DNA from: Octopus vulgaris
Lineage: Eukaryota
Assembly: GCA_951406725.2 (NCBI GenBank)
Contig: OX597824.1
Coordinates: forward strand, 89,156,001 to 89,220,000
Length of the DNA: 64,000 nt
Direction: 5' to 3'
Below are positions 12,364-64,000 of this stretch, piece after piece. A program made the position numbers and the translations under genes. Below the pieces are notes generated by a model. It worked only from the letters and a program-made list of their open reading frames with translations, made no database searches and was not told the origin of the DNA. Numbering within the stretch: position 1 is the stretch's first letter; each line of letters opens with the position of its first letter.

Positions 12364-12416
12364 GCTTAACTCATTGACTTTGCAGATAACATCCACCTTA
12401 GTTTACCATTATTACT

Positions 12417-12649
12417 TATTTCTTTACTACACACAAGGGGCTAAACACAGAGGGGACAAACAAGGACAGACAAACGGAATAAGTCGATTACATCGACATC
12501 AGTGCGTAACTGGTACTTAATTTATCAACCCCGAAAGGATGAAAGGCAAAGTCGACCTCGGCGGAATTTGAACCCAGAACGTAACGGCAGACGAAATACG
12601 GATATGCATTTTGCCCGGCGTGCTAACGTTTCTGCCAGCTCGCCGCCTT
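12417..12649 (-). mobile_element. SINE B monomer, full length with 15-bp TSD
   Basis: TSD tttaccattattact at 12402-12416 and 12652-12666; head ggcggcgagctggcag, tail gtagtaaagaaata. Confidence 0.95.
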
Positions 12650-14045
12650 CATTTACCATTATTACTGACAAGCTGGTGACTACCTGGGAAGCCCTTTCAC
12701 CTCATAAATTGACAGAGGCCGCCATTGTTCTGCTATTTGTGCATTACAAGATTGAGATAGAAGAAAAATATTCATTAAATATTTGAATAACGAATCAAGA
12801 ATTCTTTAGAAGATAATAATACACCTGAAGCAGGTGCATTATGCCTTAATTAAAAATGTTTTAGCCCGAAGGCCGCGGCCATGCTGGGGCACTACCTTTT
12901 TTTCTTTTTTCTTCCAAAACTTGCTGGCGTGCTCGCCTTCTCAGCAATTCTAACAGCAAAAGATTCATACTGGCTACATTTGTGCCAACATAACGCCCAT
13001 AAATGTTCCTGAATATATTACGTGGAGATTCCATCATCATAAGTTTGGCTATTTCAGGGCAATGACCGTCAATGCAACCCTTTTTTTCAACCCCATTATA
13101 CACCTGGGAAATCAAGAGAATTCTTCACAATTAAATTATCTAACATCTTCCTGGACGGTTTGGTTTCCTGTTTCACCATGTGTAACTTTTTCATCGATTA
13201 AATGGAAATTTCTAAATCACCATAACCAGCTGTCATTAGTTGCGAAAGTTTTTATCGCCATAAATGCTGAGGTGGCTTAGCAGCCTTACTTTGAAATTCC
13301 GCGACGTACGTTGCTTCCACCGGATCGTTGATGGATACACACATCGTCTCTACCTCCCCAAGATTTTGTATCTTTTGTAATTTTCACGCCCTTTCTTGTG
13401 CCAACAGGTGATGAATAAGAATTTGTGTAAGTATTCTATTTGAAGAGAAACATAGGTCTGTGCTTAGTCTTATATATATTCAAAATTGCTTGCCTTTTAT
13501 TTTCACACTCTGCAAAATCCCTCGCCACCGAAGGAACAGCTTCTAACTTTAGGTTTCTGGCTAAGAGATAGGGTATTATATATTTCTTTTGATTATTGCT
13601 CTCCCTTGAAGACAGAATATGAAAGACAAGACTGGAAGACGCATTATCGTTTATATAGCATTGAAAATTATAGGACAACAGAGATTATGTTGTATTCCGT
13701 ATGGTGCTTCTACTCATTGTGCCCTGGGCTACCGTGTTAAGCTAGCATAAGTAATACTCAAACTGCAAAAACAGAACTATTGTAAAGAAAATCAATTTCA
13801 GTAGATACATTTTTATCGAATTAATAAAACTTTTACCACGAAAGTGTAATGTCTATAATAGAGGAGTGTGATTGAAAATAAGATTGAGGAAGTCATATAT
13901 AACAGATTGAATATAAATGGAAAAAAATAGGAAAAAGGAGTAAAGGAAATCGAATAGAAGGCTACTTAGGGCATTGGTTGGGCGTGTATGCAGATTGCCA
14001 TAAAGGAAGTAAAATTCTTTAGACAGAAGGATTTAGGCGGATATA

Positions 14046-14244
14046 TATTTCTTTATTGCCCACAAGGGGCTAAACATAGAAAGAACAAACAAGGACAGAC
14101 AAAGGGATTAAGTCGATTACATCGACCCCAGTGCGTAACTGGTACTTATTTAATCGACTCCGAAAGGATGAAAGGCAAAGTCGACCTCGGCGGAATTTGA
14201 ACTCAGAACGTAGCTGCAGACGAAATACCTATTTTTTTACTGCC
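14046..14244 (-). mobile_element. SINE B unit without head, preceded by the tail stub of another unit
   Basis: One ~184-bp unit plus junction aaata|ggtatttcg (cc at 14228-14229). Confidence 0.9.
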
Positions 14245-14246
14245 TG

Positions 14247-16338: not shown

Positions 16339-16347
16339 CTATTATTA

Positions 16348-16390
<43 letters not shown>

Positions 16391-16464
16391 GATCATCATC
16401 ATCATCGTTATCATCATCATCATTATTATTTTTATTATTATCATCATCATCATCATCATCATCA

Positions 16465-16508
<44 letters not shown>

Positions 16509-16620: not shown

Positions 16621-16694
16621 GATATTTAATCATATCCTCCCCCACCCCGAAAGGATGAACGGCGTTTTCTGCTCATTTCTGGGTGACATTGCAC

Positions 16695-16800
16695 ACGCTG
16701 CGCGTCATCTCGTCCCAGTTCTTCTCCATTTGGAGATCTGGACTAAACCAGGCCGCTAGCAATTTAAACAGCCCGTCCTTCCAGCGCCACATAATACTGT
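16695..16800 (-). pseudogene. Possible Tc1/mariner transposase fragment
   Basis: Minus strand translates WFSPDLQMEKNWDEMTRSV, resembling the Tc1 WPxxSPDLNPIExxWxxL motif. Confidence 0.35.
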
Positions 16801-17011
16801 TGAGCAATATGGACCCGTCTCTCCAGTCGAGCTGCAGGCTTACAGTCATTTCTTGGTTGCTATTTGCTGTCCATTAGAACGTTGCAGATCACCTCGGTGT
16901 ACCTGATACCGGATACTATGACGATGACGTCATCGACTAGCAGGACTTGATATTCTCCCGTTCTATTACCAATTGCCAAGTCTGACCCAGTCAAGTCTGA
17001 CATTTAAAAGT

Positions 17012-18398
17012 TGTTGTGTGGGCGCCCCCAGACGATGAAGTAGGCTAGCCCAATACGTAGATATAGATGGAGAAGTCTAGACGTCGAGACAGAAGTAGAG
17101 TTAAGTTGAGTTGAGATCATCCGAGCATGCGACATAGAAGTGGCGACGAGGATGAGATTCGAACTCACGCGGGAATAACCCAATGGATTTATGGTATGAT
17201 TTGTTCCAGGTCCCAGAACCACAAGCAAAAGCAGAACCGATACGTAGGTCGAACAAGGAAGAGAAAACCTACAGAAATGATGGAAATTTACGCTAAGAGA
17301 AAAATATATGCCAGTTTCTCACCGAGGAAATAAAATTGATAAATTCGGGTTTAAAAAACTCAAAAGGGGGAAGTGTTGTGTGGACGCCCCCAGACGATGA
17401 AGTAGACTAGCCCAATATCTAGATATAGAGGGAGAAGTCTAGACGTCGAGAGTGAAGTTGAGTAGAGGTCATCCGAACATGCGACATAACAAAAGTAAAG
17501 TTCACAGAGCAGGTCGTCCAAACCAGGTGATTTATCCGCCTTGTGTCCGGTTTTTCGCAACGCCCCACCTCTCTTGTTGCGAAACGCAGCAGGCCATCGA
17601 GGTAAGCACTGACATTGAGGTAAGCACTGCGTTCCGGCCTGCCATTCTTCTTGAACAGTCAAGCAAAATGCTGCTGGAAAGTCGCATATATTTACTTGGG
17701 GCTGAGTAACGTGGCTCGTTGTGGTCAATCGAAACCGTGTTGTGGCTTTGTTGCCATGTCGTATGTCTGCAACTCGGACACATCGACCAGCTTTCGTCCT
17801 CACCTCATTCGATCACTCACCTTAGCTCTGACAACTTTGAGTTGAAGAATTGGTCGAAAGCGAATCTCACCGTGGACACATCTGTTGCGATGCTTTTCAT
17901 AAGTGACTCTTCTAAGGTTTCAACACAGTTTCCTTCTATTCTGGCTTTCTCTCTCGCTAAACTTTACTAAAGCCTTTCCCCGAACTCTTCGTTGTTGGTG
18001 ACTGCTCCGTAACCGCCTGCCTAACTGATTCACCAATCCGCTTTCGTTAAGCTTGGCACACCGGCGATAAAGCATTTAGTTTCCAGTAAGCGGGTCCCTG
18101 ACAACGAAGCATATATAAGTCAACCGTAAAGATCGCAAATATGTGGTCTATGCAGTCGAATACTATACATTGTTGACAATCAGTGCTTTCTTTATATACA
18201 GGCCCACAAAATACTGAAGACCAGGAGATACCAACTAATCCCATGCAGTACAAACGTGCATCCAAGATGACGTTCTAAATCGCTCGCTAACACTAAAGAG
18301 CGGAATGTTCCAGATACTCCTGACGCCTGATAAAATATAGTTACCTCACCTCGGCCGGGCGGAGACGGTCGCTACTCTAGTAGCGTTCAGGACTACCA
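17012..18398 (+). mobile_element. Internally deleted Gypsy-like LTR retrotransposon (5' LTR stub, pol tail, PPT, 3' LTR)
   Basis: Direct repeat starting TGTTGTG at 17012 and 17374 (~120 bp shared); polypurine tract aaaagggggaag (17362-17373) abuts the second copy; basic RKRKP-type tail upstream; right end at ...gactacCA is tentative. Confidence 0.65.
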
Positions 18399-18840
18399 AC
18401 TAAAACGTAAAGACAGACGAAATACCTATTTCTTTACTACCCACAAGGGGCTAAACACAGAGAGGACAAACAAGGACAGACAAACGGATTAAGTCGATTA
18501 CATCGACCCCAGTGCGTAACTGGTACTTATTTAATCGATCCCAAAAGGATGTAAGGCAAAATCGACCTCAGCGGAATTTGAACTCAGAACGTAGCGGCAG
18601 ACGAAATACCTATTTCTTTACTACCTACAAGGGGCTAAACACAGAGGGGACAAACAAAGACAGACAAAAGGATTAAGTCGATTATATCGACCCCAGTGCA
18701 TAACTGGTACTTATTTAATCGACCCCGAAAGGATGAAAGGCAAAGTCGACCTCGGCTGAATTTGAACTCAGAACGTAGCGGCAGACGAAATACTGCTAAG
18801 CATTTCGCCCGGCGTGCTAACGATTCTGCCAGCTCGCCGC
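18399..18840 (-). mobile_element. SINE B tandem array (head, 2 units, stub of a third)
   Basis: Junction cc at 18425-26 and 18609-10; period 184 bp. Confidence 0.95.
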
Positions 18841-19254
18841 TTTGGTAGTGGATATACTGTTGGTGGCGACGTTGTAAGAGCTGATGCTATCACTGGTGGT
18901 GGTCGTGTGAGGATGCGAATGACGGAGGTGGCGGCGAAGGTTCGGTTGTTGCAGGCGATAAGCCTGTTGGATGCGGATAGGGATAAGTGTTTTGATTGGG
19001 TGTATACACGCGTGTGGAATCAGCTGTACACTTCCAGGGGGAGGTGGATGGGGGTAGTAGCATATTTATGTGTATACTGACACGCGCACTTGTATGTGTG
19101 GTGTTAGAAAAAACAATGGATGACAATGTAATTGTATATACAAGCATGCATGCGTGTTAATATTTACTTAGGGTTGGGCGTAAGTAATGATATATATATA
19201 TATATGTGCGCGCGCGTGTATCAATATATACATACATATATATATATATATATA

Positions 19255-20087: not shown

Positions 20088-20541
20088 CACACTCACATAT
20101 GTATGTGTGTATTAGAAAACTACGAAATAACAAGAGTTAGATGCCTCAAGCAGAATTTCTTTTTGTTAATGACTTTCTCGAAACGTCATAATTATTTCAT
20201 TTGCATTCTTAATTGATAAAACGTCTCGGCAGCTTCGAGCACAAAATATGCTTGTCGCTGTAGTGTACGTCACAGGAGGACAACTTTTCGTTTTTACGAG
20301 CTACAGTTTGTTCATCACACGCTGCTCATTGTCGCACGGGATTCTAGGATGCCGATGTTTCGACATGTTGGGACTCTTCAGCCTGAACCACCAGGATCTT
20401 TGAGCTTTAACCAAGCTACTAGATTTGCTTATACTTTCAGCGGACAAATTGTTTACTGATCGCTGCTTGTAGCTGTTAACCGACAAATTATCGTTATTTG
20501 CACCAACGTCTATAGCAAGACCAGAATATATATATGTGGAA

Positions 20542-21146
20542 GGCGGCGAGCTGACACAAACGTTAGCACGCTGGGCAAAATGCTTAGCGGTATTTCGTCT
20601 GCCGTTACGTTCTGAGTTCAAATTCCGCGCAGATCGACTTTGCCTTTCTTCCTTTCGGGGTCGATAAATTAAGTACCAGTTACGCACTGGAGTCGATATA
20701 ATCGACTTAATTCGTTTGTCTGTCTTTGTTTGTCCTCTCTATGTTTAGCTCCCTGTGGGTAGTAAAGAAATAGAAATAGGTATTTCGTCTGCCGTTACGT
20801 TCTGAGTTCAAATTCCGCCGAGGTCGACTTTGCCTTTCATCCTTTCGGGGTCGATTAAATAAGTACCAGTTACGCACTGGGGTCGATGTAATCGACTTAA
20901 TCCCTTTGCTTGTCCTTGTTTGTCCCCTCTGCGTTTAGCCCCTTGTGGGTAGTAAAGAAATAGGTATTTCGTCTGCCGTTACGTTCTGAGTTCAAATTCC
21001 GCCGAGGTCGAATTTGCCTTTCATCCTTTCGGAGTCGATTAAATAAGTACCAGTTACGCACTGGGGTCGATGTAATCGACTTAATCCGTTTGTCTGTCCT
21101 TGTTTGTCCCCTCAGTGTGTAGCCCTTTGTGAGCAATAGAGAAATA
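20542..21146 (+). mobile_element. SINE B trimer with 15-bp TSD (1 mismatch)
   Basis: GGTATTTCG at 20589, 20779 and 20963; TSD aatatatatatgtgg 20525-20539 / aatatatgtatgtgg 21147-21161. Confidence 0.95.
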
Positions 21147-21334
21147 AATATATGTATGTGGTGTGTGTGAGTGTGTGTAAGAAATAAATGAAGTTGAAAA
21201 TGCAGAGAGAGTATATATGAAGAATTATCAAAATTAATACACTTAAGCGATTTCCAATTTGCCTGATTTTCAAAAGAGTTTCTCACAAGAAACGTGCAAC
21301 ACAGCCGCACGTCTCTCAAAAATAAAACTTATAA

Positions 21335-24109: not shown

Positions 24110-24742
24110 TAGTTCTTCCCAACCTCATGGTTACAGATTCAGTCCCACTGTATGGCACTTCGGAAAATGTCTTCTACTATAGCCCCAGGCTGATCAAAGC
24201 CTTGTGACTGGCTATGGACGCCGGAAACTTAAAGACGCCCGTCGAGGTCGACTAAATTCCGTCGAGGTCGACTAAAAACCGCCGAGGTCGACTTTGTCTT
24301 TCATCCTTTCGGGGTCGATAAATAAAGTACCAGTTATGCACTGGGGTCGATGTAATCGACTTAATACCTATGTCTGTCCTTGTTTGTCCCCTCTATGTTT
24401 AGCCCCTTGTGGGTAGTAAAAAGAAATACGTATATGTGTATGTGTGTTTGTGTGTGTGTGTGTGTGGTGTGCGTGGTGTGTGTGTTGTGTGTGTATGTGT
24501 GTGTGTGCGTGCGTGTGTGTGTGTTTCTTTGTGTCTGTGTTTGTCCCTCCACCACTGCTTGACAACCGGTGCTGGTGATTTTACGTTCACGTAACTTAGC
24601 GGTTCGGCAAAAGACATCGATAGAATAAGTAACAGAATTTAAAAAGTAAGTACTGGGGTCGATTCTTTCTACCAAAACAAATCGTTTAAGACGGTGCCCC
24701 AGCATGGCCGCAGTCTAATGACTGAAACAAGTAAAAAAAAAA
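24110..24742 (+). mobile_element. SINE A interrupted by a 5'-truncated SINE B (about 24241-24428)
   Basis: Host gacgcccgtcg|...|cgtatatg is split by a B body ending aagaaata. Confidence 0.9.
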
Positions 24743-38574: not shown

Positions 38575-38820
38575 GCTATTGAGATTCCGAAAAGGTGTAG
38601 AATTTAAACTCTGAGCACAAAGGGACAGAGCCTATTCCACAAGTCACCCGGTCTGATGCTCTTTCATCAATCCATTGCTCTGGGCTGATACTTTATCGAC
38701 CCCGAGAGGACGAATGGCAAATTTGACCCCGTCATAATTTGAAATTGAATAGCAAAGCTGGAACAAGTACCAGGGGACGATCTATCCAATACCTTAAAGA
38801 TTCTGCCAGTTCGCCACTTG
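38575..38820 (-). mobile_element. Old SINE B-related fragments
   Basis: tttatcgacccccgagaggacgaatggcaaa...gattctgccagttcgcc. Confidence 0.6.
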
Positions 38821-39389
38821 AGGTCAGGTCACTCGCGGATGCTATTGTTAACGTGTAACGTTGTACAACTTGGTGTATCGGATCGAATCGTCGGTGACTG
38901 AACCGACACCCGCTACGGTGGCGATAAGGGTGGCTAGAAACCCACCCGAACAAGAGACATAGAAATGTTTGGACATAGTGAACGAGGGTACTATTCTATT
39001 GGTCTATCTTGCTGAACTGCTAAGCAACTGAGAGGGATAAGTTTTCTGCTCTTTAACTGTATAGAAAGTAACATGTTTAGGCCAGGATCATTACGGTACA
39101 ACCATTTGTAATAGCCAATTATATTTGATTTGCTCTTAGTGGTTTTGCATGTGGCCTACAGATGTAGTTTTGTACTGTGTAAGCTATGTTTTCTTTTAAC
39201 GAAGAACATCTCAAATCTTATCCGTGGATAAACATAGTTGGTCCATCATACTGTTTTGAACTATTTGTAAATTATTTGATATCTTTTGGGTATTATATTC
39301 AGCTCGGCTAAAAAGTTATTTCCATTATGTAACTCTTTGGCGAGTAATGATAGTAGTAGTAATAGACAGAAGAAATGTTAGGCCTTTTC

Positions 39390-47999: not shown

Positions 48000-48347
48000 G
48001 TAAAATACATTATATATGACAGTACATCACAACCACAATGAGGAGAATTACAGACATAGTCTGAAGGTTTTAATATCTATTTTCATATAATGTATACACT
48101 TAACGTTCTTTGAAAAAGCATGAACATCATGACACGTTATTACTTATCTTCTAAATAATACGTTAGACTTTATATATTACGAGGACAATGAATGTGAAAG
48201 TATAGTTGTACTTCTCAGCCTGTAGATGTCAGTGTTACGTGAGTACAAAAATAGGTTACAGCCTGCGCCTATGAACAAGTTATATGTGGATTATTGAGAC
48301 TATGGGAATCGAACGCACACCTTCTAACGAACGACAGATGTGATACC

Positions 48348-48950
48348 TATTTCTTTACTACCCACAAGGGGCTAAACACAGAGAGGACAAACAAGGACAG
48401 ACAAACGGATTAAGTCGATTATATCAACCCCAGTGCGTAACTGGTACTTATTTAATCGACCCTCGAAAGGATGAAGGGCAAAGTCGATCTCGGCGGAATT
48501 TGAACTCAGAACGTAACGGCAGAAGAAATACCTATTTCTTTACTACCCACAAGGGGCTAAACACAGAGAGGAGACAAACAAGGACAGACAAACGGATTAA
48601 GTCGATTACATCGACCCCTGTGCGTAACTGGTACTTATTTAATCGACCCCGAAAAGATGAAAGGCAAAGTCGACCTCGGCGGAATTTGAACTCAGAACGT
48701 AACGGCAGACGTAGTACCTATTTCTTTACTACCCACAAGGGGCTAAACACAGAGAGGACAAACAAGGACAGACAAACGGATTAAGTCGATTATATCAACC
48801 CCAGTGCGTAACTGGTACTTATTTAATCGACCCCGAAAGGATGAAAGGCAAAGTCGACCTCGGCGGAATTTGAACTCAGAACGTAACGGCAGACGAAATA
48901 CCGCTAAGCATTCCGCCCGGCGTGCTAACGTTTCTGCCAGTTTTCCGCCT
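48348..48950 (-). mobile_element. SINE B trimer with a perfect 15-bp TSD
   Basis: TSD gacagatgtgatacc 48333-48347 / 48953-48967; junction cc at 48531 and 48717; head site at 48901. Confidence 0.97.
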
Positions 48951-49499
48951 TAGACAGATGTGATACCATTACACTAACAGCCCCATATGTGTGTGTGTGT
49001 GCATGTGTGTGTGCTTGTGTGCGTGCATGTGTGCGTGCGTGTGTGCGTGCATGTGTGCGTGCGTGTGTGCATGGGAATTTCGATGTGGCGGTTCACATCC
49101 ACTAAGCTCTCCACGTTTTCACAACAGCGTAACGCTTCTTTCTTTTTTTTTTTTGTTTCAGTTTATCAAACCAGAATTATTTGTGGCAGCCATGTTGTAT
49201 ATGTTTGAAAATGGTTGTATTGCACCGTGTTTCTCCATATTTTCTGCGGATGACATTGAATATTCTTCATAGATTAACATTAAGTATAATGATGACGTTA
49301 AAGTGTCTTGTTGACATTTTGAAGCAGTTCATGTTTAAGTACTTCGGTCTTTTCTTCAATGAAAATGTAAAGCAGTCGACATTTGCAGTCATCCCTAGCC
49401 ATTGGTACTGTTTCATAATGTATTTTATGGACATCAATTAAGTTCATTAATGTCTACAGTTTACTCATCCAGACGTAACTATACTACTTGTCAATATTG

Positions 49500-54125: not shown

Positions 54126-54630
54126 CGAGGCCAACGAATGAATAAGACAAACCTCGAAGCATGTAATATGAGGCACCGAACTGGGTTAGATCCTGTTAGT
54201 AAAGCATCTAATTCGCTGTTTTACTATCTCAGTTCTCTCCAAATTCAAAGGCATTATTCGTAATGCAGCTATCTTTGCCAAATCTCATTCCAGCCTGCAA
54301 TTTCGGAATTGCTGAGTGAGAGCTAGCGAGAGAGGGAGAGCGAGAGAAAGGGAGTGTAAGTGAGAGAGAGAGAAAGAAAGAAGGAGAGAGAGAGAGAGAA
54401 GCACCCATTGCTCTGCCTCTCACTCTCACATCAAAGACATTGCAGGCACGAATGAAGGGTGAGGTCCGTATATCTTTCCATAAAACTTTTAACAACAAAA
54501 GAAATGGAATTTTTTAATAAAAATAAATTGTTTCGTCCTAGAAGAAAAAAAAAACCCCAAAGAAACAAAGCAATGAAAATAACGATGGTGGAGAATTTGA
54601 TAATTCAAGGTCTTTATGCGTTTTATATTA

Positions 54631-54669
<39 letters not shown>

Positions 54670-55054
54670 GGCGGCGAGCTGGCAGAAACGTTAGCACGCC
54701 GGGCGAAATGCTTAGCAGTATTTCGTCTGCCGTTACGTTGTGAGCCGAGGTCGACTTTGCCTTTCATCCTTTCGGGGTCGATAAATTAAGTATCAGTTAC
54801 GCACTGGGGTCGATATAATCGGACTTAATCCGTTTGTCTGTCCTTGTTTGTCCCCTCTGTGTTTAGCTCCTTGTTGGTAGTAAAGGAATAGGTATTTCGT
54901 CCGTCTTTATGTTCTGAGTTCAAATTCCACCGAGGTCGACTGTGCCTTTCATCCTTTCGGGATCGATAAATTAAGTACCAGTTACGCACTGGGGTCGATA
55001 TAATCGACTTAACCCACCCACAAATTTCAGCCCTTGAGCCTAGAGTAGAAATGA
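54670..55054 (+). mobile_element. SINE B dimer whose second unit carries the older-type tail
   Basis: Junction gaata|ggtatttcg at 54891; second unit ends aacccacccacaaatttcagcccttgagcctagagtagaa. Confidence 0.9.
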
Positions 55055-55333
55055 TTCTTCTTCTTCTTCTTCTTCTTCTTCTTCTTCTTCTTCTTCTTCT
55101 TCTTCTTCTTCTTCTTCTTCTTCTTCTTCTTCTTCTTCTTCTTCTTCTTCTTCTTCTTCTTCTTCTTCTTCTTCTTTTTCTTCTCCTCTGCCCCTTCTCC
55201 TCCTCCTTTTTCTTCTATTCCTTCTCCTTTCTTCTTCTTCTTCTTCTTCTTCTTCTTCTTCTTCTTCTTCTTCTTCTTCTTCTTCTTCTTCTTCTTCTTC
55301 TTCTTCTTCTTCTTCTTCTTCTTCTTCTTCTTC
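55054..55333. repeat. Two long (CTT)n/(GAA)n tracts
   Basis: Direct reading. Confidence 0.95.
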
Positions 55334-62389: not shown

Positions 62390-62700
62390 TCTGTCTCTTA
62401 CCCTTAGAGCTGTCTCGCCTGGTAAGACCTACTTGAAGATTTCTCTCCCTCCAGCATAGCTCTCTAGATCAATGGAGCACACAGGCACTTCACCGCGACA
62501 TGGTACTTGTTGAATTGGCCGTTGACTACACAACAGTGCTTCCGCCCTTTTTCGTCCCACAGGGTGTCCCACTGGGTGTCCAACCCTCCTCACCAAGCAA
62601 GCTTGTTAGGGTTGCCAGTTTAGTTACCGACGACCCAACCTTGTGACAGGTTGTACAGGGTTACATGTTGCCAGTGGCGCTCAAGAGCGACCTGACCAGA
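62390..62700 (-). mobile_element. Possible RTE-type 5' UTR relics
   Basis: ccagcatagctctctagatcaatggagcacac...caccgcgacatggt resembles RTE/Expander 5' ends (from memory). Confidence 0.4.
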
Positions 62701-62757
62701 GGTTTCGAATTATTAACTGAAAGAATCATGAATGCGTCGGATAAAATACTTAACAAC

Positions 62758-63006
62758 AATCGACTTAATCCCTTTGTCTGTCCTTGTTTGTCCTCTCTGT
62801 GTTTAGCTCTTTGTGGGTAGTAAAGAAATAGGTATTTTCGCCCGTCGCTACGTTCTGAGTTCAAATTCCACCGAGGTCGACTTTGCCTTTTATCCTTTCA
62901 GGGTCGATAAATTAGGTACCAATTACGCACTGGTAATCGACTTAATCCCTTTGTCTGTCCTTGTTTATCCCCTCTATGTTTAGCCCTTGTGGGCAATAAA
63001 GAAATA
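62758..63006 (+). mobile_element. SINE B, 5'-truncated dimer
   Basis: Partial unit, junction gaaata|ggtatttt at 62831, then a unit ending gggcaataaagaaata; followed by an old B relative to about 63200. Confidence 0.92.
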
Positions 63007-63469
63007 TGAATCGTTAGAGCTTCAGACAAAATGTCTGTTCTGGTTCCTTAAGTTCTAAGTTCAAATCCTTCTAGCATCATCCTTGCCCTTTGTCCCTCTG
63101 GTGTCGATAAAATAATGTCTCAATAAAGATGTGGAGTCCATGTACTTGACTAAACCCTCTCCCTTCAAAGCCGCTGGACTTCTGCTTAATTTAGAAATAT
63201 TTAATAATACTGATATTGCATATGTAATATCTGGAAAAAGACGGGATTGTCATTTCTGGAATGCTTTTGATAAGAGGAAGTTAACATCCACAACAACAAC
63301 CTACAGATCATGAAGACCCCCAACATTTTGCAATCAACAGCAGCAACATCCCATACATCACGAACTAACAAATATCTATTACATCATCTATCACTGTGCT
63401 AGAAATAGCAGTCAAATCGGTGTCTTAAAAAAGGCAGGGGGCACACGTTAGATAATATGGTTGTAGATA

Positions 63470-63930
63470 TGTTTCTTTATTAGCCACACAGAGCTGCACA
63501 CAGACGGGACAGATTACAAAGTAGAACTTTTCTTTTTTGGGGAGAAAAAAAGTGGGGTAAGTTTTCGATCAAAAGGGATCGTAAAAGGGAAAGAAAAAAA
63601 AAGGAAAGAAAAAAAACAATAAATAGGGGTCGTGTATCACAGTAATGTCATGATGTAAAGTGTAAAGGGGGAAGCAGATAAGGTTTATCTGTGGAAAGAA
63701 GAGCCTACGGAAAAGACCACGGTAACCTCGGTCAATAATTTTACATGTTACCACATTTGTTTGCAAGTAGGTAACCCTCTGTTTTAAATTTTCCGGGTTC
63801 ATAAGATTATGCTCAAGGTGTCTTCGTCATTCATACGTGCCATCTTTGCTACATTCACCCATCTTTTTTTTTAAACATTCGCTAGACAAAACTTGCCTCT
63901 CTACTTTCACTTTCATTTCCAAGTGGAACC
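63470..63930 (-). mobile_element. Tx1/L1-like LINE 3' end (ORF2 C-terminus, 3' UTR, AATAAAGAAA)
   Basis: Minus strand FHLEMKVKVERQVLSSECLKK/RWVNVAKMARMNDEDTLSIIL* (1-nt slip in an A-run); T-rich UTR; terminal aataaagaaa. Confidence 0.65.
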
Positions 63931-64000
63931 AGAGAAAAAATTTTAAATACTGCTGAATATATATTTCTCTTTGATCTTAGATAAACTTCGATCAGGGTTC

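Follow-up and report, generated by a model that had tools for sequence, protein, structure and literature searches.

How does a dispersed SINE come to form tandem arrays in which every additional unit begins at the same letter of the element and only the first one carries a head? The question is raised by a stretch of 64 kb (hereafter the window) of AT-rich animal DNA, dense in microsatellites, in which a previous sequence-only reading had noticed six loci with a common junction. The SINE involved is 232 nt long and, by BLAST with the head plus the first unit as query, is present at eight loci that make up 4.5% of the window. By eye, we recognised an A-box-like motif at nt 12-22 and a B-box-like motif at nt 74-86; ARAGORN detected no tRNA genes in the window, Rfam gave no matches for the window or the SINE at E values up to 1, and no credible long open reading frame was found in the window. 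The window has the look of octopus DNA, and we assume that the element resembles an octopus tRNA SINE; the tRNA-derived octopus SINEs OK, OR1 and OR2 were reportedly described by Ohshima and Okada in 1994. The copies have TSDs, and some (at 24279, 62758 and 14046) are cut at the 5' end, the features of target-primed reverse transcription. With 75,502 contigs in one set (X14) and 183,266 in another (X8) matching a single monomer of the window, this is a short, dispersed and high-copy element. Pattern scans for extra copies gave none in viral contigs, none in bacterial genomes and, in metagenomes, first none and then one chance match (L001) without SINE context.

Combining BLAST with a junction scan, we have located 15 SINE tail ends in the window. 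Six meet ordinary flank and nine enter another unit, the restart being at nt 49 in all nine. These nine junctions are distributed over six loci, precisely those for which a shared junction had been claimed, and eight have the exact letters AATA/GGTATTT (the slash marks the junction), while AATA/GGTACTA is found at 48718. A complete AATA end precedes every junction and no upstream unit is cut at its 3' side. The layout is therefore one head (nt 1-48) followed by 184-nt units (nt 49-232), at most three of them in the window, with the fixed restart falling between the A-box-like and the B-box-like motifs. Two of the six arrays, at 14046 (B) and 62758 (J), have no head of their own and are cut inside the upstream unit. 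That an array never has more than one head is true inside the window but fails genome-wide, as joints of a tail to a full head (237 back) were present in at least seven contigs of X14 and at least seven of X8.

The clearest examples are two trimers, each enclosed, as had been read, in a single 15-bp TSD. Trimer D, on the forward strand, lies between TSDs at 20525-20539 and 21147-21161 (14 of 15 letters identical). Its only tRNA-like head (nt 1-48) is at 20541-20588, with a mutated A-box-like motif at about 20552-20562, assigned by motif only. Unit D1 (nt 49-232; 20589-20778) has a B-box-like motif at 20614-20626 and ends in a doubled GAAATA that looks like priming stutter; D2 (20779-20962, by BLAST) restarts at nt 49, and the terminal D3 (20963-21146) has a CAAT (AATA-signal-like) type of tail. 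Trimer G (48333-48967, reverse strand) is bounded by identical TSDs (48953-48967 and 48333-48347, 15/15) and contains a head at 48903-48950 and units at 48719-48902, 48533-48718 and 48348-48532, of which the first and third are sisters, an X-Y-X arrangement. This trimer sits inside a different tRNA-like sequence (48270-48990, reverse strand), just behind an A-box-like motif, and the flank downstream has a B-box-like motif; we saw no other copy of that host sequence in the window.

The other four arrays are less regular, and a search for TSDs at 14046, 18404, 54669 and 62758 gave none. Array C (18404-18840, reverse strand) has a head starting from nt 3, two units and the first 23 nt of a third one of a sister family, the continuation of which was not found beyond a decayed LINE-like flank. 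An 8-bp inverted repeat (18388-18395 and 18842-18849) flanks array C; it is not a direct TSD and may be due to chance. Array I (54669-55060, forward strand), located between (ATT)n and (CTT)n, is formed by a head, one unit (54717-54890) and a sister-family unit with a different tail. Array J (62758-63006, forward strand) has a 5'-cut unit (from nt 160) and a full one, with sister-family letters and a CAAT tail, and directly 5' of it there is a much more diverged head remnant (62722-62757). Another old head begins at 63007, right behind J. At 62573-62757 and 38783-38944 we also observed two copies (62% identity) of an older, composite repeat in which a related head is preceded by about 170 nt; array J interrupts one of the two. 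Array B (14046-14246, reverse strand) consists of a remnant (9-17 nt) of an upstream tail, followed by the junction and one CAAT-type unit; it is headless and adjoins a copy of another repeat family. The two remaining loci are monomers. Monomer A (12402-12666, reverse strand; element at 12417-12648) has a perfect 15-bp TSD (12652-12666 and 12402-12416, 15/15) and a head of the majority type at nt 44-49. Monomer E (24279-24428, forward strand) is 5'-truncated, from nt 85, and inserted in another repeat family, and its 5' joint shows short duplicated pieces; around this joint (24239-24293) there are two or three short copies of the nt 85-99 region, like repeated priming attempts. A second abundant repeat family, longer and containing a (TA)n/(TG)n block in its interior, extends over 18 BLAST pieces between 6429 and 51583 and hosts B and E. 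TSDs of 15 bp are thus found at three of the eight loci, D, G and A.

A repeat-rich genome invites the suspicion that such arrays are products of assembly, or of chance. We have compared four runs against monomer A, two as contig sets (X14 from organism A and X8 from organism D) and two as raw reads (X22 and X23). The joint that goes back about 184 nt appeared in at least 21 contigs of X14 (summed depth 840), at least 20 of X8 (depth 319) and at least one raw read of X22, all these counts being minima among the matches listed (15 of 303 rows) rather than rates. In X14, the loose-end consensus at the 3' end of the SINE is the unit restart (171 contigs, agreement 0.73) and the one at nt 50 is a tail (278 contigs, agreement 0.63). 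With the junction in independent contigs of two organisms and in at least one raw read, units that differ in sequence and TSDs that enclose the trimers, we regard an artefact or chance as practically negligible, and for the junction itself we consider an artefact refuted. The junction is genome-wide and common to two organisms; the multimers are real, and their frequency is unusual. Read depth, about 9-11 million in the tail bins and about 2-6 million in the head bins, points to more units than heads, but depth is not a copy number and we place no weight on it. Other tandem types are also common, since at least 23 contigs of X8 join a sister-family tail to a full head, about as many as carry the 184-nt joint (at least 20). 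The raw reads were too few for junction rates, 16 in X22 and 240 in X23 matching among about 1,934 million letters each. Some X23 reads over 12417-12482 (36 and 48) have the tail-to-nt-49 junction and, 13 nt later, a jump to about nt 167. The pattern is that of an apparent tandem of units of about 80 nt, possibly a SINE-derived satellite, and a second short-unit junction was present in 12 reads of the same run.

Why nt 49? The sequence-only reading had remarked that the 3' flanks of ordinary insertions look like the restart site, and this holds: in the six ordinary flanks, 20 of the 24 bases at positions 2-5 match GTAT, a score never reached when the window was sampled at random 100,000 times. 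Insertions favour a loose N/RTAT site, and nt 49 of the head is one of them. The proposal that the SINE inserts with a sequence bias into its own head keeps in its favour the fixed junction, the TSDs and this flank bias; alone, however, it under-predicts the junction rate. SINE-internal positions account for 11 of the 83 GGTAT sites of the window and 16 of the 1166 NGTAT sites, and nine of 15 ends at nt 49 depart from those shares with binomial p values of 3e-5 and 8e-14, respectively. Independent insertion predicts only 1-13% of the ends at nt 49, so targeting by itself is insufficient. The share of ends that abut SINE sequence (9/15) may have been inherited from multimeric sources. Microsatellite tails seem a second landing site: (ATT)n often stands in front of SINE heads, and a head often comes after sister-family tails (X14 and X8 at 12649; in the window at 54625-54668 and 16340-16508).

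The comparison of the units gives a polarity. The 3'-most piece belongs to the sister family or to the CAAT type in five of the six arrays and in none of the eight upstream units (Fisher p 0.003, with a grouping made post hoc); it is of sister-family origin at 54891 and 18404-18426 and has the CAAT tail at 14046, 20963 and 62831. As the terminal pieces are of at least three kinds, the nt-49 junction must have arisen more than once. Private substitutions show no age gradient along the arrays (6, 3 and 5 in the D units, 3 and 4 in C, and 0, 4 and 2 in G). In array J there is a hint that the upstream unit is younger, with no private changes in 73 nt versus six in 175 nt downstream. The first units have A at nt 158 in all four headed arrays, compared to about 18-19% of the depth in X14 and X8, but monomer A, also headed, has G, and counting it the figure becomes four of five headed units (Fisher p 0.067). 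Similarly, T at nt 44 is found in the four array heads and in about 37-40% of the genome-wide depth, and is absent from monomer A. These genome-wide frequencies are summed contig depths that include the sister family, and all the array statistics, chosen after inspection, come from six arrays of one window. Finally, the four possible haplotypes at nt 126/158 are all present, which points to exchange between units, and no common master is evident, as no two arrays of the window have the same full ordered haplotype.

If units multiplied at the DNA level, by slippage or unequal crossing-over that involved nt 49 and a 3' flank resembling GGTAT, as was proposed for the SINE-derived satellites of squamates, those of one array should be closest to each other. 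We found a mean of 12.1 differences within arrays and 12.6 between arrays, so there is no homogenisation within loci and local duplication is ruled out as the general cause, even with G1 and G3 being sisters. The tree of the units is star-shaped, without any starred fork. The earlier observation that units differ within an array stands for the arrays at 20541 and 18404: D1, D2 and D3 differ at 13-23 sites, share no derived variant and carry different subfamily markers. It does not stand for the trimer at 48348, whose units 1 and 3 differ at only three sites and pair in the tree with support 93/92. This pair speaks for DNA-level duplication, together with the G flank, which begins with GGTAT, one variant of 20% frequency common to the C units, and the apparent short-unit tandem with the nt-49 junction in X23 (48 reads). 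But a single crossover in a dimer cannot give X-Y-X, and I and C terminate in another family. As a general cause we consider this route improbable, and for D, I and C it is refuted.

A second possibility is that the units were joined as RNA, by a reverse transcriptase jumping end to end between RNAs cut at nt 49 or rolling round a circular RNA of one 184-nt unit. A single TSD and units of equal age would be compatible with one such event, and in the long hairpin predicted for the head (z -1.7) nt 49 falls at the apical loop, possibly a site for a loop nuclease. However, a random pool of RNAs would not order the unit types by position as they are ordered here, a circle would give identical units, at variance with the differences among those of D, and the heads are of minority type in four of four arrays. 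The flank bias would also need a separate explanation. As to self-cleavage, no ribozyme was detected by Rfam at E up to 1, and the hammerhead core CTGANGA is absent from both strands. We give little credit to this explanation, which the sequence-only reading had listed second among its three mechanisms. The same reading had suggested that the GAAATA end could pair with TATTTC at the restart; the complementarity is real, but the hairpin has only 5 bp, is weak and local, and the idea is not needed.

The closest competitor supposes growth in place only, each extra unit being a separate insertion into the resident copy, either at nt 49 or into a junction already present, aided by homology of the incoming RNA or cDNA to the target, with no copying of whole arrays. 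It accounts for the polarity of the terminal pieces, the sister-family hosts at 54891 and 18404, the younger appearance of J1 relative to J2 and the different subfamily markers among the D units, and one TSD per trimer is likewise expected; tandem insertions of SINEU-3 and R1 offer a precedent in the available parts of the respective papers (PMC4494074; PMC2718515). On the other side, it requires the loose site preference to be strengthened about 5- to 40-fold and an extra deletion for each of the headless arrays B and J, and it would not anticipate D, C and G being without an age gradient. Besides, NGTAT sites include the majority head, of CGT type, but none of the nine junctions has the CGT start. 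Growth in place as the only process seems to us unlikely, although a serious contender.

Self-insertion and a multimeric source gene had been listed as separate mechanisms. Rather than competing, they are most likely two stages, the first founding arrays repeatedly and the second copying them. We give an even chance to the full proposal, namely that target-biased insertion into an older head founded arrays on several occasions, and that these were then copied as whole read-through RNAs. Repeated founding is supported by the older-type 3' pieces, and whole-array copying by the similar ages of the units, the two headless arrays cut inside the upstream unit, the position-linked variants and the excess of junctions. 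A cut inside the upstream unit, as in B and J, is the usual result of the incomplete copying of a longer RNA. Against the proposal, monomer A is headed and still has G at nt 158; J1 looks younger and J immediately follows, at about nt 48, the remnant of an old head, both of which fit an insertion in place; and B, C, I and J lack TSDs. The lack of a common ordered haplotype and the other tandem types in X8 weigh on the same side.

The process could take place in four steps. A copy would insert at nt 49 of a resident head, using the loose N/RTAT site and generating a 15-bp TSD. The duplicated target (15 nt, nt 49-63) would be identical to the incoming cDNA, so the two may anneal and prime the second strand, with the incoming head lost and exactly one unit gained. 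Second-strand priming of this kind would rest on the general biology of target-primed reverse transcription. Both annealing-primed 5' junctions and insertion into a TSD have a precedent in R1/R2, as the accessible part of PMC2718515 indicates. By its geometry, the new unit provides a B box at its usual spacing from the old A box, and Pol III would presumably transcribe from there and read through the entire array. Read-through is expected because the unit consensus contains no run of four T (T4); T4 is absent from arrays D and I and from monomer A, and the T4 runs of G and C come from private changes. Arrays would then act as source genes, with priming at any GAAATA end, and 5' truncation plus homologous switching between units might produce monomers, dimers, trimers and headless arrays elsewhere. 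Exchange of units could yield X-Y-X, as in G.

The belief that no such behaviour had been described was partly wrong, as the architecture is published for a blood clam and for squamates. In the clam Scapharca broughtonii, the available part of the paper (PMC11481361) describes TSD1-(SINE)n-TSD1 arrays and suggests unequal recombination between TSDs. As in D and G, a mollusc tRNA SINE is involved, the first head is complete, the later heads are cut at the same place and there is a single TSD; in other bivalves arrays have mostly two to three units (PMC11481361, same part). The differences are that the first and middle clam units are also incomplete in the 3' tail, whereas here all the upstream units reach the true 3' end; that arrays are about 3% of the copies, versus nine of 15 ends here; and that the portion of the article available reports neither target bias nor founder polarity (PMC11481361). 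The squamate satellites (sSat), such as sSat3Gja1 and sSat3Ati, were ascribed to amplification at the DNA level in the part of PMC10702118 at hand. They are similar in having a leading SINE end and tandem units with boundaries common to many loci, and some units start where the head finishes and reach the 3' part. Here too we find shorter tandem units and one extended terminal unit. However, sSat contain four to hundreds of middle units and are homogenised and subtelomeric, with TSDs unmentioned in the text (PMC10702118); the arrays of the window have fewer than four middle monomers and are dispersed and unhomogenised, with two to three units and the trimers flanked by TSDs.

Other tandems are more distant. 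Those of the crocodilian SINEU-3 and Tx1-Mar, and of Tx1L in Tx1D, result from a target preference inside another repeat; for SINEU-3, the accessible text (PMC4494074) gives a different transposon as target, whole copies separated by the TSD and a specificity of about 90%, while here the target belongs to the SINE itself, in its head, and the junction is seamless. The elements of tandem R1 arrays, like R1/R2 in general, are autonomous and strictly rDNA-specific, and complete copies are separated by target sequence (PMC2718515, in part). The excerpts available of PMC13282606, PMC4758252, PMC9795677 and PMC3531059 make no mention of the junction. Our literature search, which covered mainly openly accessible papers, retrieved no cephalopod account of the junction and no promoter-neutral self-insertion between the boxes; the architecture is already published and, within those limits, the mechanism proposed here was not found. 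Retrozyme-type tandems carry a self-cleaving ribozyme in each unit; we found none in the SINE unit.

If the two-stage proposal is true, there would be a route by retrotransposition from a dispersed SINE to a tandem array, where the published papers invoke recombination at the DNA level, and also a concrete route for swapping modules between SINE families. Since the SINE is very abundant, nature offers a great number of events on which target preference, repair of 5' junctions and turnover of source genes could be tested. For these genomes, counting each unit as an insertion of its own would make repeat libraries and copy counts wrong. More broadly, and only as a tentative idea that we are inclined to doubt, the partner enzyme might have its preferred cut site between the SINE's own A and B boxes, so that self-insertion would be seamless and promoter-neutral; arrays would grow by whole units, recombine subfamilies and the sister family and outcompete monomers as sources, and multimeric read-through RNA would be the main replicating form across related species.

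With regard to the partner LINE, we found a match similar to the SINE tail at 63472-63530 (reached in 2 of 2000 shuffles). A pyrimidine-rich stretch (63472-64000, reverse strand) ends in this match and an AATAAA signal, behind a decayed frame, and is possibly the 3' end of the partner. The family of decayed frames was not assigned by Pfam, by phmmer on representatives, by word search or by Atlas, the sole match (P0001) being a repetitive and unrelated-looking protein; these frames may be L1/Tx1-like. A decayed LINE-like fragment at 16680-18403 (reverse strand) directly adjoins array C at its 23-nt third start and presumably holds endonuclease and RT-like peptides, although Pfam gave no support for this fragment. 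It contains an internal direct repeat (about 17030-17140 and 17370-17480).
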